NCBI GenBank assembly: GCA_030605785.1
Contig: JAUWHS010000089.1
Span: forward strand, 1-37,026
DNA length: 37,026 nucleotides
Source of the DNA: a bacterium
GTDB lineage: Bacteria; Babelota; Babeliae; Babelales; JAUWHS01
Direction of reading: 5' to 3'
This document shows, one piece after another, positions 1,216-27,474 of this stretch. Every line of letters begins with the position of its first letter. The first letter of the stretch is position 1. Both the position numbers and the translations under genes were made by a program. Below the pieces are notes generated by a model that had not been told where the DNA came from, ran no database searches, and was given only the letters and a program-made list of their open reading frames with translations.

Positions 1216-1557
1216 TTATGCTTTTGCATAAACAACTCTTCCTTCTCTCTTAATTTTATATACAAGAGTAGTTAAATCGTTGACTCTATCTGTAAATTCA
1301 TCTTTTGTATAAACAATAATATCTTTAGCAACATCAAAATTCCACAAAGCCCGATGTCCATCAACAAGCATTTTATGTCGGTTTTTTTCCGCCTTATCAA
1401 CAACAATAAAAAAATCCAAATCGCTATCCTCGGTTGGATTTCCCCACGCATAAGAACCAAAAAGATAAATTTCTAGCGGATCATAAACTTCAACAAGTTT
1501 ATTTTTCATTTCTTCAATAGTTTTTTTATCAATCATAAAAGACTTTCGTTTTTTCAA
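1216..1557 (-). CDS. Small Pol-beta-superfamily nucleotidyltransferase (MNT-like), 113 aa
   Basis: Carries the motif LFGSYAWGNPTEDSDLDFFIVV (GS-x9-11-D-x-D). Size is typical of minimal nucleotidyltransferases. Confidence 0.75.
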   Translation of the reverse strand: MKKRKSFMIDKKTIEEMKNKLVEVYDPLEIYLFGSYAWGNPTEDSDLDFFIVVDKAEKNRHKMLVDGHRALWNFDVAKDIIVYTKDEFTDRVNDLTTLVYKIKREGRVVYAKA

Positions 1558-6092: not shown

Positions 6093-8684
6093 ATGAATTC
6101 TCTTCAAATTCGCGCAAAGTTTTTAAATTTTTTCAAAAACAATGGTCATACAATTGTTCCCAGTTCATCTTTAATTCCGGTACAAGATCCAACACTTCTG
6201 TTTACAAACGCCGGTATGAATCAATTTAAAGATGTTTTTTTAGGAAAAGAAAAAAGAACATACAAAAAAGCAACCTCTATTCAAAAATGCGTCAGAGCCG
6301 GTGGAAAACATAATGACCTGGATCAAGTGGGTTTTACAAATAAGCATTTAACATTTTTCGAAATGATGGGGAATTTTTCTTTTGGTGATTATTTCAAAGA
6401 AGAAGCAATAAAATATGCCTGGGAATTTTTAACAAAAGAAATGAAACTGCCTGAAGATAAATTAGTTATTTCTGTTTTTACAACAGATGATGAATCGTAT
6501 GAAATATGGAATAAACAAATTGGAATTTCTCCTGAAAAAATTTACCGCTTAGGTGAAAAAGAAAACTTTTGGCAAATGGGGGATACCGGACCATGTGGAC
6601 CATGCGCGGAAATTCATATGGATCTTGGCAAAGATAAAAGCTGTAAAAATAAAAATTGTGACCCTTCCTGCGACTGCAAACGCTTTGTTGAAATCTGGAA
6701 TCTTGTTTTTATGCAATACAACAAACAAGAAGACGGTGAATTAAAACCATTAAAACAAAAAGGCGTTGATACAGGAATGGGTTTTGAACGTCTTTGTATG
6801 GTTGTACAAAACAAATCATCTCTTTTTGAAATTGACACATTCCAAGATTTAATAAAAAAAATCGAAGAACTAACCAAAAAAACTTACGCAAAAAGCGCAA
6901 ATAAAACTAAAGCCGCCTTCAATGTTCTCGCGGATCATGTAAGAGCATGCTCACTACTTATTGCTGATGGCTGTATGCCTTCAAACGAAGGCCGTGGTTA
7001 TGTTTTAAGAAAAATCATTCGACGAGCAGCTCTTTTTGCTCAAAAACTTTCAGATAATAAAAAACTTTTTCCGGCTCTTTCAACAGAGCTTGTAAAAATA
7101 ATGGGATCAATTTATCCGGAACTTGAAACGAACAAAGAACTTATTTTTAAAGTTTTAACATCTGAAATTGAACGCTTTTCAGAAAATTTAATTCAGGGTC
7201 AAAATATTTTTCTAAAATATTTTGATATCAATAAAAAAGAAGGAGTTAATGCACTGACAGGGCAACAGGCATTCAAACTTTACGATACTTATGGCTTTCC
7301 ATTAGAGCTAACAATACTCATGGCAAAAGAACAAGGTTTTGATGTTGATACAGACGGGTTTGAAATGGAAATGAAAAAACAACAAAAACAATCCGGTAAA
7401 AAAATACAAAAAGAGGAAGAAAATAAATTGGAAAAAAAAATACCCGAAAATATAAAAAATAAGTTTACCGGCCATGACGAACTAGAAAACAAAAGTAAAG
7501 TTATTTTTACTCTTCCTGAAAACCAAGATCTTTGGATAATAACAGAACAAACACCTTTTTATGTTGAATCCGGTGGACAGATTAGTGATTCAGGATGGAT
7601 AACAATTAATGAAAAAACGTATCCAATTATTCAATTTTATAAAAATAATAAAGTTATTGCTGTAAAAATAAAAACTGAAGCTGATGATAAAATTAAAGTT
7701 GGTGATATCGCGCGCAGCGTTGTTGATTATTACGCGCGACTAAACACAATGAAAAATCATACAGCAACACATATGCTACAAGCGGCATTGATTCAAATTG
7801 TTGGCAAACAAATAAAACAGGCCGGCTCATTTGTAAACGATAAAGTTTTGCGTTTTGACATAACACATCATGAAGCTTTAACAAAAGAACAAATTAACCA
7901 AATTGAAAAACTGGTAAACGACAAAATTCAGGAAAATCTCGAATTAAAAATATTTAATACAACACTTGAAAAAGCAAAAGAGGCCGGGGCAATGGCATTT
8001 TTTGGAGAAAAATATAATCCGGAAAATGTCCGTGTAATTCAAATTCCAGGTTTTTCAACAGAACTTTGTGGAGGAACACATGTTAAGAGAACCGGAGATA
8101 TTGGATGTTTTAAACTTTTAAGTGACATGGCGCTTGCTTCCGGTGTACGAAGACTAACAGGAACAACGGGATCTGAAGCAATTAGAATTTTCCAGGAAAA
8201 TTTTGACACAAACAAAAAATTATCTGAAAAATTCAAAGTAAAACAACAAAAAATAATTGAAGCGGTAGAAAAACAACAAGAAAACTTTGAAAACTCATTA
8301 AAAGAAATCAAACAACTAAAAAAACAACTTCTTAAAACCCAAATTCCACAATGGGCAACACAAATAGAACAAATTAACGATTTACCATTTTTATTTTTGG
8401 AACTCCCGGACTTAAACAACGTTGAATTAAAGCAAATCGCAACAGAGATCGAAAAAACAAAACCGGCCTTTTTCTTTTTAATTTCAGGAAAAGATAAAAT
8501 AAATTTCGTTTGTTATTTAAGTAAAAACTTTGAAAAGAAAATAAATCTCAACGATCTTTCTAATTTTTTAAAAAAAGAATTGCGATTAAAAGGCGGAGGA
8601 AGCGAAACCTTAATTCAAGGTGGTGGAGAAAAAACAAAAAACATTAAAGCTCAAATCGTTAATTGGGTAAAAAATCTAAAATGA
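6093..8684 (+). CDS. alaS: Alanine--tRNA ligase
   Basis: Class II AlaRS motifs: FTNAGMNQFK, RAGGKHNDLDQVG, FFEMMGNFSFGDYFK, DTGPCGPCAEIH, VDTGMGFERL. Also the editing-domain HTATHML...CGGTHV and a C-terminal DHHA1-like GGGSETLIQGGG. Confidence 0.97.
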   Translation: MNSLQIRAKFLNFFKNNGHTIVPSSSLIPVQDPTLLFTNAGMNQFKDVFLGKEKRTYKKATSIQKCVRAGGKHNDLDQVGFTNKHLTFFEMMGNFSFGDYFKEEAIKYAWEFLTKEMKLPEDKLVISVFTTDDESYEIWNKQIGISPEKIYRLGEKENFWQMGDTGPCGPCAEIHMDLGKDKSCKNKNCDPSCDCKRFVEIWNLVFMQYNKQEDGELKPLKQKGVDTGMGFERLCMVVQNKSSLFEIDTFQDLIKKIEELTKKTYAKSANKTKAAFNVLADHVRACSLLIADGCMPSNEGRGYVLRKIIRRAALFAQKLSDNKKLFPALSTELVKIMGSIYPELETNKELIFKVLTSEIERFSENLIQGQNIFLKYFDINKKEGVNALTGQQAFKLYDTYGFPLELTILMAKEQGFDVDTDGFEMEMKKQQKQSGKKIQKEEENKLEKKIPENIKNKFTGHDELENKSKVIFTLPENQDLWIITEQTPFYVESGGQISDSGWITINEKTYPIIQFYKNNKVIAVKIKTEADDKIKVGDIARSVVDYYARLNTMKNHTATHMLQAALIQIVGKQIKQAGSFVNDKVLRFDITHHEALTKEQINQIEKLVNDKIQENLELKIFNTTLEKAKEAGAMAFFGEKYNPENVRVIQIPGFSTELCGGTHVKRTGDIGCFKLLSDMALASGVRRLTGTTGSEAIRIFQENFDTNKKLSEKFKVKQQKIIEAVEKQQENFENSLKEIKQLKKQLLKTQIPQWATQIEQINDLPFLFLELPDLNNVELKQIATEIEKTKPAFFFLISGKDKINFVCYLSKNFEKKINLNDLSNFLKKELRLKGGGSETLIQGGGEKTKNIKAQIVNWVKNLK

Positions 8685-9199
8685 AAACGAAAATTTTAAT
8701 AGGCGTAATAGTTCTTGCTATAACATTAGTTACAATTGACATCTATTTTACAAATCATATTTTCTCATCAAAAGATAAAGCTAAAAATATTGAATACACT
8801 TTGGCAATAGTCAAACCTGACGCGGTTCAATCAAAAAAGACCGGAAAAATTATAGATAGAATTGAAAATGAAAATTTTGAAATAATAAAAATAAAAAAAT
8901 TAAGATTAACACCAAAACAAGCAGAAAGTTTTTATTCCGTTCATAAAAATAAACCATTTTTTAAAAACTTAGTAAATTACATGACTTCCGGATCAATTGT
9001 TGTGATGGTTTTACAAAAAGAAAACGCTATCGAAGAGTGGCGTAAATTAATGGGCTCAACGAACCCGGAAGAAGCTGAAGAAAATAGCTTGAGAAATCTT
9101 TTTGGAACAGATATAGAAAAAAACGCGGTTCATGGTTCTGATTCACCACAAACCTCAAAAAAAGAAATTTATTTTTTCTTTCCTAGTTTTATAAAATAG
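8681..9199 (+). CDS. ndk: Nucleoside diphosphate kinase with an extra N-terminal transmembrane/signal-anchor segment
   Basis: TLAIVKPDAV, FYSVHKNKPFF, GSIVVMVL and the active-site NAVHGSDS. I prefer the ATG at 8681, which overlaps the alaS stop as ATGA, over the track's GTG at 8663. The N-terminus is MKTKILIGVIVLAITLVTIDIYF. Confidence 0.9.
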   Translation: MKTKILIGVIVLAITLVTIDIYFTNHIFSSKDKAKNIEYTLAIVKPDAVQSKKTGKIIDRIENENFEIIKIKKLRLTPKQAESFYSVHKNKPFFKNLVNYMTSGSIVVMVLQKENAIEEWRKLMGSTNPEEAEENSLRNLFGTDIEKNAVHGSDSPQTSKKEIYFFFPSFIK

Positions 9200-9264
9200 T
9201 ACAAAAATCTTTTTTTAAATCTCTTAATAACGCACAAAAAGAAGTTTCTAAAGAAATTAAATCT

Positions 9265-9783
9265 TTATTCAATTATGTCGGATAAATTAGATAATTCGCA
9301 GTTTTTTTTGCCACCATGCGATCTAATAATTTTTGCTATTTTTAAACGTAATTTAGCCGTTTCATAATTATTATCAATTGAAAGAACAAAATCCAACGGC
9401 GTTGCTCCAACTTTATTTTTAACGTTTACATCAATTCCATAAAACAAACACAACTTTACACACCATTCTTCACACAAAAAAGCTGCCATGTGTAACAAAG
9501 TGTTTCCTTTGCTATTTACCAAATCCCTATTATTCGAAACAAATAATTTTAAAAATTTTCGAAAAAGGATAGGAAAAAATAATAGCTTTGCATCACCATT
9601 TATTACAAATGCTTCAAACGGTATACCTTCAAATTCTTTTCTTGTTAAATCAAACTCTTCATCTGTCAAAGATCGCTGATTGTCGTTTAACATAAAAACA
9701 ATCTCTTCTTTATCAACAGGGAAAATATTTATTGGAAATAAAACTGAGATAAAAAACAAAAATAAAATAAAAAAGATCTTCAT
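9265..9783 (-). CDS. Small secreted ankyrin-repeat protein
   Basis: Signal peptide MKIFFILFLFFISVLFPINIF. ANK consensus in GNTLLHMAAFLCEEWCVKLCLFYGIDVNVKNKVGATPLDFVL. Confidence 0.75.
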   Translation of the reverse strand: MKIFFILFLFFISVLFPINIFPVDKEEIVFMLNDNQRSLTDEEFDLTRKEFEGIPFEAFVINGDAKLLFFPILFRKFLKLFVSNNRDLVNSKGNTLLHMAAFLCEEWCVKLCLFYGIDVNVKNKVGATPLDFVLSIDNNYETAKLRLKIAKIIRSHGGKKNCELSNLSDIIE

Positions 9784-9927
9784 AATCTCCCCCTTTATTT
9801 ATTTTTTCTTTTTTTAGAAAATAGCAAAAGAAAGTTCCATATTACAATAAATATTTACAATTAATTGATTAGTTGGGTACTTACTCTTTAAATTTGTAGA
9901 TATTCATCAATCTAAAAGGAGAGAAAT

Positions 9928-11268
9928 ATGAAAATAAAATGTTTTATTTTGTTGGCTTTTTTGTTTACCAGCACAAATGCGTCAAACAAAATTGTCGGTT
10001 TAGAGAATTTGGGCAATACATGTTTTATGAATTCAACTCTGCAATGTTTATTTAGCCTGGATGAACTCAATAATTTAATTACCCAAAATATAAATAAATA
10101 CAAAAAAAACTCAATTTCGAAAGAATATATTGACCTGATAAATAATTATAAAGAAAACCAAACAGATTTTTTTGAACCTCAATCTTTTTGCAATACAACT
10201 AGGGAAAAATTTGATTTAAACAAGCAAATAGATGAAAACAGATTTCAACAAGAAGACGCGCATGAATTTTTAATGCAATTATTATCACATCTAACAGATG
10301 AAGATCTTAAAAAGAATAATGAAGAATTAAAAAATGAATTAAAAAATTTAATTTACACAACTTTAAGTAGCCAAATGACACAAAATGATGTTAGTTGGGA
10401 TGGCCTAAGTGAAATGACAACAAATCTTTCAGTAGAAATAACAGGCAACCAATTATCAGGCTGTTTAGATTCTTTTTTTGCAAAAGAAACTCTTGAAGGT
10501 GGAATACAAAAACAATACAAAGTCTCAGATTTACCCAAATATTTAATAATTCAGTTAAAACGATTTAATCCAGATTTAACAAAAAACACAACTGATATTA
10601 CTTTCCCGATTTCAAACTTAAATTTGAAAAATTATCTATCAGAAGATATAAAAAATGAAAACGCAAATTATAATCTTATTGGAATTATCGCTCAATCAGG
10701 AGGGGATTTAGCAACCGGTCATTATATTGCCTACACAAAACGAAATAAGGTGTGGTATCAATTTGATGATGAAAAAATAAAAAAATTAGATTGTGCTCCT
10801 TCAGGCAATATTAAAGAGGACGACGATTACACTTACATGCCCTACATTCTTTTTTATGAAAAAACAATAACCAAACATATTCCGGAACAACCGGTTACGA
10901 TGCAAATTGATAAACCGATTCATACTTTTCCAAACACTTCCTCAGATGAAATGAAAATCTTTTTAAAAAGCATAAATCGTACTGGTAATCAAAAAAAACT
11001 AACTTATAAAATAAATCTACTTAAATTTTTTATTAAAGAATTCGGAATTCCTGAGGAACTAAAAACATTTAGTTGGAGTTGGGCGAGTTGGTTTTGGCAA
11101 TGGTTTGGTTATCCTGCTCCAAACCCATGGCAAGAAATAATAACTGAAAATGATGTCGACACTAAAATAAACAAATCAAATGTAGATAATTTTTTAGATA
11201 CCGTTCAACAATTTAAGCAATATTTAATAGACAATGATCAATATCCGGAAAATGATAGCCCTGAATAA
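9928..11268 (+). CDS. Eukaryote-like ubiquitin-specific protease (USP/UCH, peptidase C19) with signal peptide and Trp-rich C-terminal extension
   Basis: Cys box GLENLGNTCFMNSTLQCL (Cys codon 10021-10023), QQEDAHEFL, LIIQLKRF, and His box GHYIAYTKRNKVWYQFDDEKI. RBS aaaaggagagaaat lies before the ATG. Confidence 0.85.
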   Translation: MKIKCFILLAFLFTSTNASNKIVGLENLGNTCFMNSTLQCLFSLDELNNLITQNINKYKKNSISKEYIDLINNYKENQTDFFEPQSFCNTTREKFDLNKQIDENRFQQEDAHEFLMQLLSHLTDEDLKKNNEELKNELKNLIYTTLSSQMTQNDVSWDGLSEMTTNLSVEITGNQLSGCLDSFFAKETLEGGIQKQYKVSDLPKYLIIQLKRFNPDLTKNTTDITFPISNLNLKNYLSEDIKNENANYNLIGIIAQSGGDLATGHYIAYTKRNKVWYQFDDEKIKKLDCAPSGNIKEDDDYTYMPYILFYEKTITKHIPEQPVTMQIDKPIHTFPNTSSDEMKIFLKSINRTGNQKKLTYKINLLKFFIKEFGIPEELKTFSWSWASWFWQWFGYPAPNPWQEIITENDVDTKINKSNVDNFLDTVQQFKQYLIDNDQYPENDSPE

Positions 11269-11295
11269 TAATATTTAATTTTATATAAAACAATT

Positions 11296-11328
11296 AAAGC
11301 CCGACATCGCAATGCTCAACCGGGCTTT
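11296..11328. terminator. Hairpin between the convergent USP and clpB genes (probable bidirectional terminator)
   Basis: aaagcccg (11296-11303) pairs with cgggcttt (11321-11328). A/T runs flank both sides. The loop is long (17 nt), so only moderate confidence. Confidence 0.45.
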
Positions 11329-11332
11329 AATT

Positions 11333-13894
11333 TTAACTTATAACAATCTTTTTATTTATTAATCTTACAGAAAATTTTTTCTTATCAGGATTTTTCAACA
11401 TTTCAACAGCTAACGGATTTGTAACATAATGTTGGATTGTTCTTTTTAGCGGTCTTGCGCCAAATTCTTTGTCATAACCAAGTTCCGCCAACTTTTTAAC
11501 TACATCATCAGTAATTGAAAGTTCAATATCTTGCTCTTTAATTCTTTTTATCAAATTACTAATTTGAATTTTCGCGATTTTTACAACATCAGATTGTGTT
11601 AAAGATTTGAAATAAACTATTTCATCAATACGATTCAAAAATTCCGGTCTAAAATGTTTAAACAATAAATTATTAATATCTTCTTTTACTTTTTCAGTTA
11701 TATCACCGGCTTTTAAAATTAAATCTGAACCTAAATTTGATGTCATAATAATTATGCAATTTCTAAAAGAAACGGTTCTTCCCTGAGAGTCGGTCAACGT
11801 TCCTTCATCTAAAATCTGTAAAAACAGATTAAAAACTTCAGGATGCGCTTTTTCAATTTCATCAAAAAGAACAACACTATACGGATGTTTACGAACCTGT
11901 TCTGTAAGTTGGCCACCTTCTTCATAACCAATGTATCCCGGAGGAGCGCCAATTAATCTAGCGACTGCATGTTTTTCCATGTATTCGGACATATCAATTC
12001 TTATCATTCTATGTTCATCATTAAAAAGATAATCTGCCAAAGTTTTTGCGACTTCAGTTTTTCCGACTCCGGTAGGACCTAAAAATAAAAAGGAACCTAT
12101 TGGTTTATTTGGATCCGATATACCGGCTCGATGAACACGAATAGTGTCCGCGATTTTTGTAATTGCTTCGTCTTGACCGATAACCCTTTGATGTAAAACT
12201 TTTTCCATTTCAATTAATTTTTGACTTTCATCCGCTTTTAACTTTTCAACAGGAATTTTAAGCCAACGTGATAAAACCGCCGCGATATCATTTTCATCAA
12301 CTTCTTCTTTAATTAAATGATCCCCATTAATTTTTTTTAATTTTGCTTGCTCTTGCTCTATCTTCTTTTCAACTTCAACTAATTTTCCGTATTTAATCAT
12401 AGAAGCTTTGGAAAAATCACCCTCTCGTTCCGCTCTATCATATTCAACTTTTAACGCGTCACGTTCTTCTTTTAGTTTTTGAATCTTTTCTAACGGCTGC
12501 CGTTCTGATTTCCACTTTTGAGTTAGTTGTCGATCTTGCTCTTTAAAATTTTCTAATTCTTTACTCAAAACTTCCAATCGTTTTTTAGATTGTTCGTCTT
12601 TTTCTTTTTCGAGAGCCACTTTTTCAATTTCCAGTTGCCTTATTTTTCTTTCAAGTTTATCCATTTCTTCCGGTCTTGAATCAATTGCCATTTTTACCAT
12701 TGACGCGGCTTCATCAATCAAATCAATCGCTTTATCGGGAAGATAACGATCAGGAATTAGCTTTGCGGATAAATTTGCGGCCTTGACTAAAGCTTGATCT
12801 TTTATTCTAATTCCATGATGAAGTTCATAACGCTCTTTTATTCCTCGTAAAATTGAAATTGTATCTTCAATGGACGGTTCTTCAATTAAAACTTTTTGAA
12901 ATCTTCGTTCAAGAGCTGCGTCTTTTTCAATATACTTTTTATATTCCATCAAAGTTGTAGCGCCAACACAATGCAAAAGCCCTCTTGCGAGCGCCGGTTT
13001 TAATAAATTAGACGCATCCATTCCACCATCTGACGCTCCGGCGCCAACTAGCATATGAAGCTCATCAATAAATAAAATTACAGACTCGGATTCCTTTTCA
13101 ATGGCTTTTAGGATTGCTTTTAAACGTTCTTCAAATTCACCTCTAAACTTTGTACCCGCAATTAACGCTCCCAAATCGAGAGACAAAATTCTACGATTAC
13201 GCAAACTTTCAGGAACATCATCATTTACGATTCGTTGCGCGATCCCTTCAACAATTGCCGTTTTACCAACTCCGGGATCACCAACCAAAACAGGATTGTT
13301 TTTTGTTCTGCGAGATAGAATTTGAATAACTCTGCGAATTTCAACATCTCGACCAATTACCGGATCTAATTTTCCTTCTCGCGCCAGTTTTGTTAAATCC
13401 TGACAATATTTTTCTAAAACTTGGTATTGGTTTTCAGCTCCTTGATCTTTCACAGTCTCCCCCTGCCTTAAAGAATTCACCCAATCTAAAACTTTTTGAT
13501 ATTCAAAATTATTTTGTTTAAAAAAATCTAATATTGATGTTGGTAAATTAGTTGTTTTTGCAAACGCGAGCATACAAACATCAACACTTATAAATTCATC
13601 ATTTAAATTTTTTGCGATTTGATCACACTCAGATAAAAATTGCTGTAAAAAATAATCAGGCGCCGGTTGAGCTCCTTGAATCGTTGGAATTTTAGATAAT
13701 TCTTGTCCAACTAACTCACTTAGCTTATTTGTGTCTATTCCTAAAGACGCAAAACCGGACAAACAAAAATTGTTTTGCAACGCGACGGCCAAAATATGTA
13801 TTGGTTGAATAACGGAATGTTTATTTTGTTGGGCTAAAGAAAAGGCTTCTTGCAATAATTGCATAAAAGCGTGTGTGAAATTTTGTTCATTCAT
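11333..13894 (-). CDS. clpB: ATP-dependent chaperone/disaggregase ClpB
   Basis: Two AAA+ modules ([13 protein letters not shown] and [12 protein letters not shown] Walker A). Long M-domain coiled coil between them ([20 protein letters not shown]...). ClpB-type N-domain. Confidence 0.96.
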
Positions 13895-13915: not shown

Positions 13916-14977
13916 TTACGATACCTTATAAAAACTATTCTTTGGAATAGCAATATAACTTAAATTTCTAGATTTTCCCCAGGCTGTTAAAAAATCTTTT
14001 AAATGATACGCTTTTAAAGTTTTTTTGCTGCTAGAAAAAGCGGGATCAACACAAATCACAGCTTTTTTTTTCTTACTCCAACCAATAACAACAACAAAAT
14101 GTCCATTGTCATATGGCTTTCTTCCTCCACGCAATTTTCCACGAATACTAACAGCAACCGGAATTTTTCTTTTTAAATAATCATATAACTCATCAAAATT
14201 ATTTAGTCTTTGCGCTCTGCAAAAAACATTCCCTTTTGATGAATCAAAAACTTGCGCGGCATTTAAAATCCAATTTCCATAAATATCCAAATAACTGTTG
14301 TCATGAACTAAATTTGCAAAATTAGAAACAAATGATGTAAGTCCGCCAATTTTAGGCAACAAACGTTGAGGATTTAAATGATAATCTAAAATCATACTTA
14401 ATGATGTTGGTGAACAAATATCTCTAAACCGAGAATGTCCAACAACCATTTGTGATTGTCTGGGAAAACCTTTTATATAAGTTGTTGGTTTTTCCAGGCT
14501 TGATTTAGCTTCGCAAAATTTAGTCATATCACAAGTATCAACAAACAACGCTTTTAGATTTCTTAAGTCAGCCCCATTTTGAGCTATAACTTTTATTCTA
14601 AAAGCGTTACTTTTTTTTCCTCTGGTCAAAACCATTCGAACATGCTTTGCCTGAACAACAGGAATACGAGAATTGACAAAAGTTTGTTGTGTTTTAACAT
14701 CCCATTGCGCAAGCTTGCACCAGGGAGACCACTTATTATGCTTAATACTCACCAAAAAAGAAAATGATCCCTTTTTTGGTCTCAATGCATTCCAAGATAA
14801 AATCAATTCAGTAAATGGATTTTTTTGTGAACTAATCCAAATATAATTATTTGAAATTTTACCGTCATCATCGGTAAAATCATTAGTCGTTAAAAATTTA
14901 GATGTTACATGTGAAAAATTCGCGAATGAATTCTGATAAAAAAATATAAAAATAAGAAATAAAAATGTTTTTTTCAT
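13916..14977 (-). CDS. Secreted protein with C-terminal papain-like C39-like (Peptidase_C39_2-type) cysteine peptidase domain
   Basis: Signal peptide MKKTFLFLIFIFFYQNSFA. Candidate catalytic Cys in QMVVGHSRFRDICSPTSLSMILDY. Later IPVAVSI...DNGHFVVVIGW...ICVDPAF matches the Cys...His...Asp layout of that family. Confidence 0.6.
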   Translation of the reverse strand: MKKTFLFLIFIFFYQNSFANFSHVTSKFLTTNDFTDDDGKISNNYIWISSQKNPFTELILSWNALRPKKGSFSFLVSIKHNKWSPWCKLAQWDVKTQQTFVNSRIPVVQAKHVRMVLTRGKKSNAFRIKVIAQNGADLRNLKALFVDTCDMTKFCEAKSSLEKPTTYIKGFPRQSQMVVGHSRFRDICSPTSLSMILDYHLNPQRLLPKIGGLTSFVSNFANLVHDNSYLDIYGNWILNAAQVFDSSKGNVFCRAQRLNNFDELYDYLKRKIPVAVSIRGKLRGGRKPYDNGHFVVVIGWSKKKKAVICVDPAFSSSKKTLKAYHLKDFLTAWGKSRNLSYIAIPKNSFYKVS

Positions 14978-22073: not shown

Positions 22074-22276
22074 CCAAGACCTACAGAAGCGCGCTAAGAT
22101 TTTTTAATTAAAGAAACAAAGGTTTAAAAATAAAAAAAGAAAGTCTGTGACTTTTCGTAAAAATTAATGTTTTTTTATTTATCATCCCCAAATACAAGTT
22201 TTTTTGTTCTCTTGACTCCAAACGGCAAAAAAAAGCACAATTAACTTTGTATAATCAAAAACTAAAAGGAGAAAAA

Positions 22277-24664
22277 ATGAAAAATAAACTAGTTATGATC
22301 TTTCTATTTTTATCAATAAATTTATTTCAAAATAAAATAGAAGCAGCAGAATTAACACAAGAAGAAAAAGAAAACAAATTACTTTTATTTCCATTCAATC
22401 TTGAACGAGCAAGATTACAAGCAACCCAGGAAGATCAAATCAAAAAGCTAAAAAAAGCAATAGTAACACTAAAACCTCTCTCAATTCCGGAAGAATTAAA
22501 AGAAACGGTTGTTAAAGGAAGTTTGATTAAATGGACATACGATACTAAACCTTGGGAAAATATAGAATCGACAGATAATATCAATGAAGAAAATGTTGAA
22601 ACTCTACTACAAGCTTCTCACCAATATTCAATTCCCAAAATTGCAGTCTTTTTTCAAAAACAAATACCAACTGAAGATCAATTTAAAGATAAAAATGACA
22701 AACTTTGCCCTTTAATTTTATCAACCGTAAAAGGTTGGTACATACCATCTTTAATACTTTTAAACAACACTAAAAACAAAGAATTTAAAATCTTTAACCT
22801 AGATATAAGCGCGCAAAATAAACTTGGCCAAACTGCTTTAAATCTTGGAATAGAAGAAGGGGATTTAAATAATAAAAATATAGTCAAAACCATCAAACTT
22901 CTAATAAATAATATTAAACCTATTAGCTTAAGAACCAAAAACAATGAAGGTAATACCGCCTTGCATTCAGCAATTAAAAGACTTGCGGGAGAATTTCCAA
23001 ATGCGCCCGAATTAAAAAAAGAGGGAATTAAAAACTTACTGGAAATAATTGAAATCTTAAAAATAAAAGGTGGTGATCGGTTATTAAAAGAGAAAAATAT
23101 AAAAGAAGAAACTCCATTTCAAATTTATAACGCGAAACAAGAAGAAATAGGAAAAAAATTAACTCCGGAACAAATAACAAAATTAAAAGAAATTTTAAAA
23201 CCGGAACTAGAAGAAATTATTGAGCCTAAAACTCCCGAAACAAAAACTCCCGAAACAAAAACAGTGGAAACAAAAACAGTGGAAACTGAAGCCCCTGGAA
23301 TAATTAAAACATTTCCGATTACAGAGCAGGAAACACTAAATAAATTTATCGAAGGAATCGCGAAAGCAAAAAAAGAAAGTAGTAACGCGAATAAAATCAA
23401 TATTATAAAGATGTTAGTACAGCAAACCGGTATACCTGAAGAGTTTCAGGGAGCCAAACTTGAAAAAGAAAATTGGGAAAACATAACCGATATTGATGGC
23501 ATAATTCAAAATGCGTTAGAGTTTTTATTATATATAAAACTGGAAAAATTAGATGATTATTTGAGCGCTAATTTCAAATGGAGTGATTGGTTAAAAGGTT
23601 CAATCATTACTCCATTAATTGAAGAAGGTAAATTAAATCTCAATGGCGCGCGACCAATTAATATAGACATCAAACTAAAAAGGAAAGAAAATGAAATTTT
23701 TGATGTATTAATAAAAATTAATCAAATAACTCCAATCAAAAACTTATCTGTAATTCATCAAAATAAATTTAAAAGAGTTCCGGATGCAATTTCAGATTTA
23801 AAAGAAATAGAAATATTAGATTTTTCAAAAAACAATATAAAAGAACTTCCTACTACAATCGCGAATTTAGAAAAGCTTCAAACTTTAAATCTTTCTAACA
23901 ATAAAAAACTGAATAAGATACCTAAAGAAATAATTGAATGGGGAAAACAGGAAGGACACTCTTTAAATATTAAAGATACAAAATTCATAGAGCTCCAAGA
24001 AAAAACCGAAAAAATAATTAAAGAGGCTATAAAAGCAATTGAAGAAGCTGAAAAAATAGGAGCTGATGTAAGTTCAGCAAAAGGCCAATTAAACGGGGAA
24101 GAAGGAGCTTTAAAGAAATTTAAAGATGGTGAATTCGCAGACGCTGAAATCTTGGCAAACACAGCTAAAGATAGCGCCTTAAAAGCGATAAAAGCCAAAC
24201 AAAAAGAGATAAAAGGAAAAGAGGAAGAAAAAGTTATCGAAAAAATAGAAATCCCGGAAAAACCCACTCCTGAAATAGCGCCAATAAAAGAAACAGAAAT
24301 AAAAAAAGAAATTGAAAAAGAAAAAACAAAGATAAAAGATAAAAAAGATAAGGAACCTATAAAAGAGGAACCTGAATGGAAACTCACAATTAAAGAACTC
24401 GAAGAAAGAGCAACCGCCGAAAAAATATTAAAAATAAACCAAAAAGAAAAAGAGGCTTTAATTGAATGGGCAAAAACTGAAATAAACAAACTTCCAAAAG
24501 ATAAAAGAACCGCAATAAGAAATTCTGTTAGAATTAGCGTTAGAAAAAGACGTGATATTGAATTTAAAAAAGCAATTGCGGAAACAATTTTCGCGACAAG
24601 TTTAATGTTCAAACAACTATATCATTCAAACCAAATTGACATTTTAAAAGAAGCGACTGAATAG
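22277..24664 (+). CDS. Secreted chimeric ankyrin-repeat + leucine-rich-repeat + Lys/Glu-rich coiled-coil protein
   Basis: I take the start at MKNKLVMIFLFLSINLF (RBS aaaaggagaaaaa). ANK: GQTALNLGIEEGD...NNEGNTALHSAIK. LRR: VPDAISDLKEIEILDFSKNNIKELPTTIANLEKLQTLNLSNNKKLNKIP. Also a KTPET/KTVET tandem repeat and a long K/E-rich C-terminal region. Confidence 0.8.
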   Translation: MKNKLVMIFLFLSINLFQNKIEAAELTQEEKENKLLLFPFNLERARLQATQEDQIKKLKKAIVTLKPLSIPEELKETVVKGSLIKWTYDTKPWENIESTDNINEENVETLLQASHQYSIPKIAVFFQKQIPTEDQFKDKNDKLCPLILSTVKGWYIPSLILLNNTKNKEFKIFNLDISAQNKLGQTALNLGIEEGDLNNKNIVKTIKLLINNIKPISLRTKNNEGNTALHSAIKRLAGEFPNAPELKKEGIKNLLEIIEILKIKGGDRLLKEKNIKEETPFQIYNAKQEEIGKKLTPEQITKLKEILKPELEEIIEPKTPETKTPETKTVETKTVETEAPGIIKTFPITEQETLNKFIEGIAKAKKESSNANKINIIKMLVQQTGIPEEFQGAKLEKENWENITDIDGIIQNALEFLLYIKLEKLDDYLSANFKWSDWLKGSIITPLIEEGKLNLNGARPINIDIKLKRKENEIFDVLIKINQITPIKNLSVIHQNKFKRVPDAISDLKEIEILDFSKNNIKELPTTIANLEKLQTLNLSNNKKLNKIPKEIIEWGKQEGHSLNIKDTKFIELQEKTEKIIKEAIKAIEEAEKIGADVSSAKGQLNGEEGALKKFKDGEFADAEILANTAKDSALKAIKAKQKEIKGKEEEKVIEKIEIPEKPTPEIAPIKETEIKKEIEKEKTKIKDKKDKEPIKEEPEWKLTIKELEERATAEKILKINQKEKEALIEWAKTEINKLPKDKRTAIRNSVRISVRKRRDIEFKKAIAETIFATSLMFKQLYHSNQIDILKEATE
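23228..23287 (+). repeat. In-frame 15-bp tandem repeat x4 (aaaactcccgaaaca x2, aaaacagtggaaaca/t x2) encoding KTPET-KTPET-KTVET-KTVET
   Basis: Read directly in the sequence. Copies 1 and 2 are identical, and copies 3 and 4 differ only in their last two bases (ca vs ct). Confidence 0.9.
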
Positions 24665-24673
24665 AAATAATTG

Positions 24674-24719
24674 AAAAAAAAATTAGCCTTTACCTAAATT
24701 GGTGAAGGCTAATTTTTTT
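24674..24719. terminator. Bidirectional rho-independent terminator shared by the convergent ANK-LRR gene and paralog A
   Basis: Stem ttagcctttacc (24683-24694) / ggtgaaggctaa (24701-24712) with one G-U pair. An A9 run lies upstream and a T7 run downstream. The T run overlaps the stop codon of the minus-strand gene. Confidence 0.8.
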
Positions 24720-27474
24720 AACTGACTTTTATGTCTCTATAATAAACATAAACATCCCAAGAACCAATTCCAACATATTCAAAGTTTTTAACCGGATAAG
24801 GATCTTGCCAATCTAAAATCTTTTTATCATCCTCATAAACAACAATATGTCCCTCATCTACACTGATTTTATATTTTCTAAATTTAAAACTTTGCCCTAA
24901 TTTTTTTAAAGTATCGGGATCTAAAACATCTGTTTTTTCCGGCGCGTCTGAATATTTATATTCCGCGACAGTCGTACCCAAACTTTTTGTTCTTATTACA
25001 GATGCTGTTCCTTTCCAACCACGAATTACAATTTCATAAATAGGTGTATTGCTATTTCTGACATCTGTTCGTTTTGGACTAAAACAAATATTTATATCAT
25101 TAAGAGTCTTTGCTTGAAATGAAATAGTCTTTTTTTGTTTTGAGGAATCTAACTTGATCCAAAAATATTCTCCATAAAGAGGAGGAATTGCTACGCCTTC
25201 TTCCGTTTTGTTGAATTTTTCAATCAAGCCCTGAGCAATTTGATTAGCGTTAAAATACCATTGTTCTTTTTGTTTTATTCCTTTTTCATCCGAGATATCA
25301 AATAGATATGGATTATCTTTCATATTGATTAATAATTTTAATAATTTTGTAGAATATTCATCATCCTGTTTTTTTCCAAATCTAGCATCATAAACAATAT
25401 CAAGGGCTCCAACTACTTTTTTTTGAATATTAGAACCCTCAAAAACTTTCGGATGCGTAGCCAAATCCGCAATTAATCGGTATGCCGCAAGAATTAAGCC
25501 CGGATCTTGTTGTAAATCTATTTTTGTTAAAACATCCTTAACTTTTTTTTGATTTATAACCGCTTGTTCCGGCGCGCCTACCTGCGCAAAAGAAGTTTTA
25601 CCAATACCTCCAACAAACGCGTAAGTCCCCGGCCCTTGAAAACCTAAACGTCTAATCCCTTTATCTTCCGCTTTTGCGGATAACATACTCCCAATTCCCT
25701 TGAAAACTTCACCGCCAACTCTCGCGAGAATCGCGCCTGGCCCCCTTCCCGTTCCGGCCCAAGCCATATCTTCTGAAATTCTAGTTGCCATTTGACCAAC
25801 AGCCTGCCCCATAAATGCGCCTCGTTGCATTGCCTCTTTTTGATGTGTTGGTTCCGGACCTTTTGTTTTTATAAATTTTGGAGTTCCATCAGATTCTATA
25901 TCTAACATTAAAAAATATTTCATATTTTTTTCTTCGACCTTTAAAAGAACATAATTTCTTTTAAAGATTAAATCTTTTATTCCAACGTTTGGTCTGTCCT
26001 GAAATAATTCATATAAAAAAGGACTTATAACAGTAAACGAATCCGGATACCTAAATGCTTGTTCTGTTTTTTGATAATATTCCTGATTTAAATCCATAAT
26101 CAGATCTACAGCCGGACCTATTTTTATATTTTTACAAAATATAGCCCCTTCTGTTTTAGTACCAAAACTTTCCGGTAAGCCAATAGCAATTTGGTTTGAA
26201 ATTTTTAATGGTTCAGGATCTTTCCATACAAACAGCGTGTTTTTACCAGGATTGCCTTTTCCAAATAAAATAAAACCATTATTAATTGATATCCAATAAC
26301 GATTAAATTTTTCCGGATCACTTAAAACAATTTGTTGATTCGCCGTAGACAAAACAGACGCGACAGCTTCACCTCTTCTTTTTAAAATTGTTCTTGAATT
26401 CGCGTCCGCCCCAATTAAAAATTCATATTCAAAATTAGCGCCAAAAGCAACTGTCAAACCGTTTTCACCTTTTGTTTCAAAAGAAAAACAACCTTGACCG
26501 GGAACACGCAATGGTGTTTGTAAAATTTCACAATTATTTTTTTTTGTTTTAACGGCAATTTCTTTTGACTCAAAATATGGTCGCCAGTCTTCTTGCGAAA
26601 CCATCGCGGGACTTAACTGAATATCTGAATATTGAACCGATAAAAGATTCGCGCCAAGCCCGACTCTATTTATTTTTAAACTTGCGTCATCATCAAAAAA
26701 AGACATAAAAACATTTTGACCCGCGAAACCTTGACCAACCAAAACTAGCCCATCATTAATACTAACCCAATAAGATTGAGGAATTCCCGGTTTTACCGCG
26801 GCAAATTTATTTTTTGTCGCTAAAACTTTATAAACAATTTCACTTTCTTTTATTTGCGGATTTCTTTTTAAAATGTAAGATTCCGTATTTTTATTTGCCC
26901 CTATAACAATTTTCCATAAAAATTTTGGCGCAATTTCATCAGAAAAAACAATAACTATCTCTCCTGACTCACTACTTATATCATCTTTCGCCGGATTTGC
27001 CTGAAATGAAATAGTTCCATTATTTATTTGACTTAAAGATTCATCAAGCCATGCATATCCTCCACTAACGGAAATAGATGAACCTGAAATAAGACCCTTA
27101 AGCTTTCTTTTACTAAAACCTTCAATTCTTATTTTTGATTTTTTAATTACAGGATCAAGATTTAAATCTTGTGTTTGATTCGAAGCAACAATTATTTTAT
27201 TTTCATATTTTTTTGTTTTTTGGTTTATATTTAAAAACTTTTTACCACTAATTTTTAAATCATTTGAGGTGTTATTTCTAATTCTTTCTAAAAATGCTAA
27301 ACCAAAATCTCTCAAGGTTTTTTCTCGCATTTTTTTTACACTCTTTACCTTAGTTGTTTCTGTTTTTTCTATTCTTGTAGCATGCGCAATAGTTGGTTTA
27401 ATTTCCTTTGAAAAAATAACAGAAAAATTAATCAACAAATTAAAAATAAATAAAATAAAATGAAAAAACTTCAT
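24718..27474 (-). CDS. Large secreted protein, paralog A (918 aa): three FAMeT-like (Methyltransf_FA-type) beta-sandwich repeats plus a central Gly-rich/helical region
   Basis: Signal peptide MKFFHFILFIFNLLINFSVIFS. Repeat signatures: FLWKIVIGANKNTESYILKR...YWVSINDGLVLVGQG...NRVGLG; FEYEFLIGADANSRTILKRRG...YWISINNGFILFGKG...FVWKDPEP; IYEIVIRGWKGTASVIRTK...ILDWQDPYPVKNFEYVGIGSW. Colinear with the 984-aa paralog. Confidence 0.8.
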   Translation of the reverse strand: MKFFHFILFIFNLLINFSVIFSKEIKPTIAHATRIEKTETTKVKSVKKMREKTLRDFGLAFLERIRNNTSNDLKISGKKFLNINQKTKKYENKIIVASNQTQDLNLDPVIKKSKIRIEGFSKRKLKGLISGSSISVSGGYAWLDESLSQINNGTISFQANPAKDDISSESGEIVIVFSDEIAPKFLWKIVIGANKNTESYILKRNPQIKESEIVYKVLATKNKFAAVKPGIPQSYWVSINDGLVLVGQGFAGQNVFMSFFDDDASLKINRVGLGANLLSVQYSDIQLSPAMVSQEDWRPYFESKEIAVKTKKNNCEILQTPLRVPGQGCFSFETKGENGLTVAFGANFEYEFLIGADANSRTILKRRGEAVASVLSTANQQIVLSDPEKFNRYWISINNGFILFGKGNPGKNTLFVWKDPEPLKISNQIAIGLPESFGTKTEGAIFCKNIKIGPAVDLIMDLNQEYYQKTEQAFRYPDSFTVISPFLYELFQDRPNVGIKDLIFKRNYVLLKVEEKNMKYFLMLDIESDGTPKFIKTKGPEPTHQKEAMQRGAFMGQAVGQMATRISEDMAWAGTGRGPGAILARVGGEVFKGIGSMLSAKAEDKGIRRLGFQGPGTYAFVGGIGKTSFAQVGAPEQAVINQKKVKDVLTKIDLQQDPGLILAAYRLIADLATHPKVFEGSNIQKKVVGALDIVYDARFGKKQDDEYSTKLLKLLINMKDNPYLFDISDEKGIKQKEQWYFNANQIAQGLIEKFNKTEEGVAIPPLYGEYFWIKLDSSKQKKTISFQAKTLNDINICFSPKRTDVRNSNTPIYEIVIRGWKGTASVIRTKSLGTTVAEYKYSDAPEKTDVLDPDTLKKLGQSFKFRKYKISVDEGHIVVYEDDKKILDWQDPYPVKNFEYVGIGSWDVYVYYRDIKVS

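Follow-up and report, generated by a model that had tools for sequence, protein, structure and literature searches.

A USP-family deubiquitinase gene with a predicted export leader and a clade-specific C-terminal helical module in a marine-sediment Dependentiae bacterium

What would a bacterium do with a ubiquitin-specific protease (USP) of eukaryotic type, and does such a gene truly belong to its chromosome? The question is raised by the open reading frame (ORF) at 9928..11268 of a 37,026-nucleotide stretch (contig JAUWHS010000089.1 of assembly GCA_030605785.1, positions 1 to 37,026; hereafter the window), in which a first-pass annotation, made from the letters alone, had recognized a USP-type deubiquitinase with a bacterial signal peptide. 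We consider it probable, judging from sequence comparison and structure prediction, that the ORF encodes an exported, catalytically competent USP (peptidase C19) deubiquitinase of an obligate intracellular, protist-parasitising Dependentiae bacterium. The comparisons described below confirm that it is a real, intact USP gene with a predicted complete catalytic triad, Cys32/His265/Asp280. It is a further USP of a kind already noted in Dependentiae since 2015, and the new part of the finding is only a small, clade-specific helical module at its C terminus.

The family call passed the profile check named for it in the first-pass annotation: all 254 positions of the Pfam profile PF00443 (UCH/USP) aligned with residues 23-310 (E value 1.7e-48; 165.8 bits, where the cutoff is 23.9). 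Every one of the 94 distinct PDB sequences found at E<=1e-3 was a USP, and the top matches were USP2, USP46 and USP12 (E about 1e-19). The motifs quoted earlier were all present at the residues assigned to them, with Cys32 in the Cys box VGLENLGNTCFMNSTLQCL, His265 in the His box GHYIAYTKRNKVWYQFDDEKI, and the QQEDAHEFL and LIIQLKRF motifs. When 60 USP sequences were aligned, Asn27, Cys32, Asp110, His265, Tyr266 and Asp281 fell in invariant columns; Glu187, conserved in 57 of the 60, was also kept, and HMMER placed Asp280 opposite the third triad residue of USP2. An AlphaFold2 (AF2) model had a predicted local distance difference test score (pLDDT) of >90 across nearly all of residues 21-312, with beta strands of the fingers predicted at 144-170 and 194-211. 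Foldseek matched this model to USP2, USP12, USP46, USP4 and USP14 (E about 2e-22; target-normalised template-modelling (TM) scores of 0.75-0.79), so that the thumb–palm–fingers fold was found in a predicted, not a solved, structure.

Judged by its genes, the window is a chromosome fragment of a marine-sediment Candidatus Dependentiae (TM6/Babeliales) bacterium. It has about 31.6% GC and carries uvrC, alaS, ndk, clpB, mnmE, jag, groEL, a tRNA-Gly gene and membrane-lipid genes, interspersed with genes for leader-bearing ankyrin-repeat (Ank), leucine-rich-repeat (LRR), peptidase and unassigned proteins. Its DNA was found in cold-seep and marine-sediment metagenomes. The AlaS protein was 50-58% identical to those of Babeliales/Dependentiae metagenome-assembled genomes (MAGs) and was used as the taxonomic marker; GroEL, at 65-71% identity to many phyla, was dropped for that purpose. 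Every member of the Dependentiae in culture lives as an obligate intracellular parasite of protists (PMC4378268, PMC6561590).

A search of 5.8 billion clustered proteins found a single close homolog of the window USP, P0002, which is 69% identical over its full length. Its contigs, L001 and L002, have the order alaS-ndk-(three small genes, two with Ank matches)-USP-clpB. A third full-length ortholog of 460 aa (49-51% identity), in locus L083, lies in the order alaS-ndk-ORF-Ank-USP-clpB. Because the same alaS-ndk-Ank-USP-clpB position recurs in these two other assemblies, contamination is excluded. In addition, an independently assembled Logan contig from run X1 (6,086 bp) spans alaS to clpB (6429-12514) at an even depth of about 17-21x, and the USP gene (GC 0.286) has a GC content at third codon positions (GC3) of 0.220, with neighbours at 0.20-0.23. 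Identities to the L001 and L083 orthologs were 69% and 49% for the USP and 73% and 33% for the adjacent Ank protein, compared with 87% and 72% for AlaS and 94% and 89% for ClpB. Despite this fast divergence, the catalytic residues, the leader and the C-terminal motifs were retained across the three USP orthologs, a combination of rapid change and constrained key residues such as a host-interaction protein would be expected to show. Metatranscriptomes from this sample and study contained no contigs for any gene in a 16-kb stretch, groEL and clpB included, and are therefore uninformative on expression; a scan for sigma-70 promoters and terminators around the USP gene gave no more sites than did shuffled sequences, and none in the intergenic region.

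The hydrophobic N terminus belongs to any functional product, because an in-frame stop lies four codons upstream of the ATG, a Shine-Dalgarno motif precedes this ATG and the next in-frame methionine, M34, lies past the catalytic Cys32. By the n-, h- and c-region rules, this leader has the form of a cleavable Sec signal peptide. The -3/-1 residues before the predicted cut are T/A, I/A and I/A in the three orthologs (T-N-A↓S, I-S-A↓S and I-N-A↓L), and the h-region of 9-11 residues, with a Kyte–Doolittle (KD) hydropathy of 3.18, is too short for a membrane anchor.

Beyond the catalytic domain and a low-confidence linker (residues 313-330), the three orthologs share a C-terminal module that is 67% and 41% identical between the window USP and its two counterparts, and that is predicted to be helical. 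Folded alone by AF2 from a four-sequence alignment, it gave an all-helical model of six to seven helices with a pLDDT of 76 and a predicted TM score (pTM) of 0.66. The least confident part was a Trp-rich patch, which the first-pass annotation had picked out in the extension and which does occur there. We compared a profile of the three orthologous C termini with 13,930 ORFs from the window and the fetched loci, and one other ORF was matched, twice: the leader-bearing Ank/LRR protein at 22247..24664 (full-sequence E 2e-7). The motifs FPxT, KINxxK, GIPEE[LF], PW[EQ]NI, IN.xNV.xLL and Q[FY] follow in the same order in the USP module and in the Ank/LRR copies. P0122, the ortholog of the Ank/LRR protein in the sister genome, is syntenic beside groES/groEL and a Methyltransf_FA protein; it consists of a signal peptide, the module and LRRs, lacks the Ank region and the first module copy, and keeps copy 2 straight after its signal peptide. 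Given that the module occurs on the USP, on the Ank/LRR protein and on P0122, at either protein end, it behaves as an autonomous domain.

Searches for more distant relatives returned little. With E allowed up to 10, Pfam yielded nothing but sub-threshold noise for the module or either Ank/LRR copy; comparison of the module model with PDB folds gave a best E of 3.4 and TM <0.36, and hence no assignment; and an exhaustive HMMER scan of 1.84 billion representatives found no relative of the module apart from the ortholog P0002. A word-indexed search with the module alignment (A3) had zero matches and missed the known ortholog too, and so is no true negative. We rejected P0121 as a relative of the C terminus: the match of this D/G/T-rich repeat protein is confined to 'PWEEIIT', which it hits five times. 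We also dropped a likeness of the INEENVETLLQASHQY segment to the C-terminal part of BTB domains, which had no Pfam or fold-search support.

The Trp patch is a variable feature of this module: L083 and Ank/LRR copy 1 have a shorter version of it, and copy 2 and P0122 have none. Its Wimley–White interfacial score is -12.4 kcal/mol per 15 residues; that of the next-best segment is -4.3. The insert could reasonably act at a membrane interface and the module in targeting or as an adaptor, and the proposal of the first-pass annotation that the extension is a targeting element is compatible with a shared autonomous module. More tentatively, the module may represent an undescribed autonomous effector domain of a marine Dependentiae clade, carried on USP, Ank/LRR and LRR scaffolds at either end, that directs Sec-exported effectors to the host or vacuolar membrane or across the outer membrane, with the Trp insert of the USP as a membrane-interface anchor; we regard this as possible rather than likely. 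The shared module is a candidate effector-targeting domain in a lineage that seemingly has only Sec and a type II secretion system (T2SS).

Table 1. Positions in the window of the USP gene, its predicted functional parts and related features
Feature	Position	Strand	Basis and remarks
USP-family deubiquitinase gene	9928..11268	+	ATG-start ORF, 446 aa; Pfam UCH; full-length orthologs in L001/L002 and L083
USP catalytic domain (thumb, fingers, palm), residues 23-310	9994..10857	+	Pfam envelope, AF2, Foldseek
Catalytic Cys32 codon	10021..10023	+	Invariant in 60/60 aligned USPs; oxyanion Asn27 five residues upstream
Catalytic His265 codon, followed by gatekeeper Tyr266	10720..10722	+	H265 and Y266 invariant (60 aligned USPs)
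Asp280/Asp281 codons	10765-10770	+	D281 invariant; column 280 is N or D in 60/60
Gln256 replacing the first His of the His box	10693..10695	+	His in 57/60 aligned USPs
Shine-Dalgarno AGGAG, 6 nt before ATG	9917..9921	+	Read from sequence
Leader, residues 1-18, MKIKCFILLAFLFTSTNA	9928..9981	+	n-region MKIK, h-region CFILLAFLF, c-region TSTNA; predicted signal peptidase I (SPase I) cut after Ala18
C-terminal helical module, residues ~331-437	10918..11238	+	FPxT...GIPEELK...PWQxI...INxxNVDxxL...QF; conserved in three orthologs
Trp-rich patch FSWSWASWFWQWFGYPAPNPWQ, residues 381-402	11068..11133	+	Variable insert between GIPEELK and PWQxI motifs
Module copy 1 in Ank/LRR protein	22421..22630	+	hmmsearch domain E 1.1e-3; blastp alignment with identical IPEELK
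Module copy 2 in Ank/LRR protein	23300..23476	+	hmmsearch domain E 6.5e-6; tblastn E 8.8e-7
Leader-bearing ankyrin-repeat protein, 172 aa	9265..9783	-	Pfam Ank 24.4 bits (cutoff 21.1); orthologs L001 73%, L083 33%

To place the gene among bacterial USPs, a Cys-box profile pattern was run over one genome per species for 185,579 species, and 85 USP loci were confirmed; an earlier scan of bacterial genomes with patterns from a single USP protein had returned no matches. The loci were concentrated in Babeliales, Amoebophilaceae/Cardinium, Chlamydiota (Parachlamydiaceae, Waddliaceae, Simkaniaceae and Rhabdochlamydia), Holosporales and Oligoflexales. In Babeliales and similar bacterial loci (L166-L171, L185, L190, L191, L198 and L163), the Cys box begins at residue 24-30, right after a hydrophobic leader of ~20 aa. 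As far as these sequences go, a leader just before the Cys box is how Babeliales USPs are normally built, and the signal peptide that had been singled out as unusual is the norm. It was also on record: Babela massiliensis was reported to have secreted C19 ubiquitin C-terminal hydrolases and a T2SS as its sole secretion system (Pagnier et al. 2015, PMC4378268), and T2SS components, including two gspD copies, occur in all TM6 genomes compared (PMC4776705). In Chromulinavorax, signal peptides are found on 44% of coding sequences and on 78% of Ank proteins, and the bacterium sheds vesicles (PMC6561590). Predicted USPs are known from Amoebophilus (PMC8831229). Our literature search found no published characterisation of any Dependentiae deubiquitinase.

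The Babela enzymes resemble the window USP in phylum, peptidase family, predicted signal peptide and presumed type II route, but are known from annotation only. The labelled Babeliales USPs of the survey are only about 25-27% identical to the window USP, form no supported grouping with it and lack the C-terminal module. Among characterised enzymes, SnUSP1-3 of Simkania negevensis likewise have a complete USP domain, all active-site residues and an aromatic gatekeeper, and have been shown to act on ubiquitin probes and chains (Boll et al. 2023, PMC10643670); they differ in being large, with internal hydrophobic regions, in a Chlamydiota host with other secretion systems, whereas the window USP is small and its short, cleavable-type leader abuts the domain. 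Burkholderia TssM is also a bacterial USP-type effector and is secreted by a T2SS, hence in a Sec-dependent way (Hermanns et al. 2023, PMC10719079). Unlike TssM, which has an Ig-like N-terminal domain and no fingers subdomain, the window USP is predicted to form the strands of the fingers and can be superposed on complete USP domains, and so does not show the TssM-like fingers deletion with its Littlefinger loop. The eukaryotic minimal USPs (USP2, USP12/USP46, USP4, USP8 and USP14) match best in both sequence and fold and have their boxes in the same order; identity to these is 25-28%, and the window USP lacks a zinc ribbon and the WD-repeat-partner regions, and adds the leader and the C-terminal module. 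The survey strengthens the case of the Simkania paper that USP-type deubiquitinases are recurrent in protist-associated bacteria, not a rarity.

Export may be solved differently elsewhere. In Cardinium, Amoebophilaceae and Cytophagales loci (L183, L196, L201, L202, L203 and L227), the USP leaders end in a lipobox-like sequence (..GGSC, ..LEGC, ..CSGC or ..GQGC) followed by a linker, and these USPs of Bacteroidota endosymbionts may be lipoprotein-anchored, unlike those of Dependentiae.

We then considered where the gene may have come from. Neighbour-joining trees of the USP catalytic domain (295-310 columns, 200 bootstraps), a method that cannot resolve deep branches at ~25-30% identity, united the three orthologs at 100% bootstrap, with deeper groupings at 0-4%; a USP12/46 clade excluded the window USP at 100%. 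Giant-virus MAGs carry hundreds of USP genes that are 25-31% identical to it. These Nucleocytoviricota USPs are compact (~330-350 aa), consist of the USP domain only and are as close as any eukaryotic USP, but a hydrophobic leader or a C-terminal module was found in 0/79 of them. Mean corrected distances from the window USP were 1.57 for eukaryotic, 1.56 for giant-virus and 1.75 for labelled Babeliales USPs. The phylogeny that the first-pass annotation had suggested as a check thus recovers the ortholog clade and does not single out a source. All eukaryotes have USPs, whereas among host-associated bacteria they turn up only here and there; the sensible direction is thus acquisition from a eukaryote or its virus, and the proposed eukaryote-to-bacterium transfer is plausible on this distribution. 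As a recent or traceable event it does not stand, given a GC3 equal to that of the neighbours and the collapse of bootstrap values in the deep branches. The acquisition is an old one, from a donor that cannot be named, and the export leader, absent from viral and eukaryotic USPs, is an addition made on the bacterial side.

Two further sets of loci touch on this question. Ten loci (L170, L172, L174, L176, L179, L181, L188, L194, L207 and L211) hold leaderless, giant-virus-like USPs of ~340-360 aa, mostly on short contigs, in MAGs labelled Patescibacteria, Poribacteria, Balneola, Dehalococcoidales and others; six of these USPs cluster at 100% bootstrap. They are probably mis-binned viral or eukaryotic contigs that inflate apparent counts of bacterial USPs. 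L164 and L165, which provide the context of a nearer USP homolog (P0005, 31% identity), carry zf-MYND, WD40, Ank and Peptidase_S74 genes and may stem from Dependentiae or from a giant virus.

How, then, might the enzyme act? In the mechanism that we propose, the precursor would cross the inner membrane through Sec and be cut after Ala18, and the mature protein would be released in outer-membrane vesicles or by the type II system that TM6 genomes are reported to share. Once in the host, the Cys32-His265-Asp280 triad would hydrolyse the bond after ubiquitin Gly76 on proteins of the parasite surface, the vacuole or the host, and removal of ubiquitin would blunt autophagy and degradation that depend on it. 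Positioning of the enzyme, at a membrane or on a partner in the host, could be the task of the C-terminal module and its Trp-rich interfacial insert. We infer this export route, substrate and cellular role from the USP family and from what has been published on Dependentiae, TssM and Simkania.

Several points weigh against this picture. The fingers lack the CxxC pairs of a zinc ribbon, which the alignment consensus has twice (the only cysteines of the protein are at positions 5, 32, 40, 88, 179 and 289), and Gln256 stands where most USPs have the first, non-catalytic His of the His box; the description of the boxes as all canonical was therefore slightly overstated. Activity, and ubiquitin rather than another ubiquitin-like (Ubl) protein as the substrate, are predictions against which the possible effect of these two changes counts. 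The signal peptide is a rule-based call, made from the n/h/c regions and the -3/-1 residues. There are no secretion genes in the window, those of a type II system included, and the outer-membrane route rests on the literature on other Dependentiae. A zinc ribbon is common in the fingers of USPs but does not define the family, and has been lost in several active members. Gln256 is common to all three orthologs and to the Babeliales USPs L167, L168, L171 and L180; it may be a shared derived character of the window clade and several Babeliales USPs, which the tree does not unite.

The strongest competitor to a host-directed deubiquitinase is a protease for a Ubl modifier (NEDD8, SUMO or a protist-specific Ubl), comparable to USP18 for ISG15 or USPL1 for SUMO. 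USP18 was among the Foldseek matches, the fingers are compact and zinc-free, His256 has become Gln, and both TssM and SnUSP2 cross-react with NEDD8 or ISG15 probes (PMC10719079, PMC10643670). However, the best sequence and fold matches are the ubiquitin-specific USP2/12/46/4/8, Glu187 is retained as in most USPs, and the characterised bacterial USPs all act on ubiquitin, so we judge this specificity to be rather unlikely.

We give somewhat less credence to an enzyme of the periplasm or bacterial surface that works on a bacterial or non-ubiquitin substrate. A Sec leader alone reaches the periplasm only, no outer-membrane translocation signal can be read in the sequence, and such leaders are carried by about half of all large ORFs in the window. 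Yet the bacterial periplasm is not known to hold any substrate that ends in Gly-Gly, it is only in host-associated lineages that this architecture is seen again, and the adjoining leader-bearing Ank and LRR proteins are typical host-interaction proteins. It is improbable, too, that the protein is a catalytically dead decoy that merely binds ubiquitin. The Gln256 substitution would fit such a pseudo-deubiquitinase, but Cys32, His265, Asp280/281, Asn27 and Tyr266 are invariant across orthologs down to 49% identity, and the other Babeliales USPs with Gln256 keep the triad as well.

The remaining alternatives can be set aside. Mis-assembly or mis-binning of eukaryotic or giant-virus DNA, brought to mind by the abundance of USPs in giant-virus MAGs and by the leaderless USPs in MAGs of unlikely phyla, is refuted by the bacterial housekeeping genes on both sides in three independent assemblies, the evenly covered alaS-clpB contig of run X1, a GC and GC3 that match the neighbours, a bacterial Shine-Dalgarno motif before the ATG and the lack of leaders on viral USPs. 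A role as the deconjugating enzyme of a bacterial Ubl conjugation or anti-phage operon has next to nothing in its favour beyond the existence of such operons, E1, E2, Ubl and deubiquitinase-like protease genes included (PMC11601603, PMC10097602, 10.1101/2023.09.04.556158), which makes the premise that bacteria have no ubiquitin system outdated: Pfam annotation of all large ORFs found no E1, E2 or Ubl gene in the window, PADLOC had no match for the USP, its neighbours, or the Ank or C39-like proteins, and the export leader contrasts with the cytoplasmic location of conjugation systems.

An exported, host-directed deubiquitinase remains the reading that we favour, and the combination that the first-pass annotation had seen, a USP-fold enzyme with a Sec-type leader beside a leader-bearing Ank protein in a host-manipulating bacterium, is supported as far as computation can show. 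The enzyme is small (a core of ~290 aa) and, having no zinc ribbon and no transmembrane segments, should express easily. It would be a convenient entry to how the widespread, nearly uncultured Dependentiae handle the host ubiquitin system.

The Ank gene reported next to the USP gene is divergent from it, as described, at a distance of 144 bp, and its product passes the Pfam cutoff; the N terminus is long and hydrophobic, and no clear -3/-1 site can be seen in it. Small Ank-type genes lie between ndk and the USP gene in varying number, one in the window, two to three in L001 and two in L083; the first gene upstream of the USP gene, divergent from it, encodes an Ank protein in 3/3 genomes.

Other genes of the window drew our attention. 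The ndk gene (8663-9199, +) encodes a complete NDK domain preceded by a hydrophobic N-terminal segment, MKTKILIGVIVLAITLVTIDIYF, which is kept in L001 and L083 and suggests a membrane-anchored or exported NDK in a parasite dependent on host nucleotides. The LRR protein at 32957-36100 (+; 1047 aa) has two LRR blocks around an unassigned centre of ~480 aa (about 33602-35050), in which 'LMGHGS ... FFYDTCFGGG' is reminiscent of the His/Cys dyad of clan-CD cysteine proteases; Pfam and PDB sequence searches with this centre gave no match to a protease domain. Two paralogous leader-bearing proteins of 918 and 984 aa (24718-27474 and 28129-31083, both -) contain three Methyltransf_FA (PF12248) stretches each, and the position of the first beside an LRR gene is kept in the sister genome (L326). 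A small nucleotidyltransferase (NTase; NTP_transf_2) at 1216-1557 (-) matches the PADLOC candidate system PDC-S09, and in the sister genome a HEPN and NTase pair (L001, 10152-10863) adjoins clpB, which points to a mobile toxin–antitoxin-like pair that takes up differing positions in related genomes. Directly downstream of clpB, a leader-bearing 353-aa Peptidase_C39_2 protein (13916-14977, -) represents another cysteine-peptidase-like protein that is predicted to be exported.

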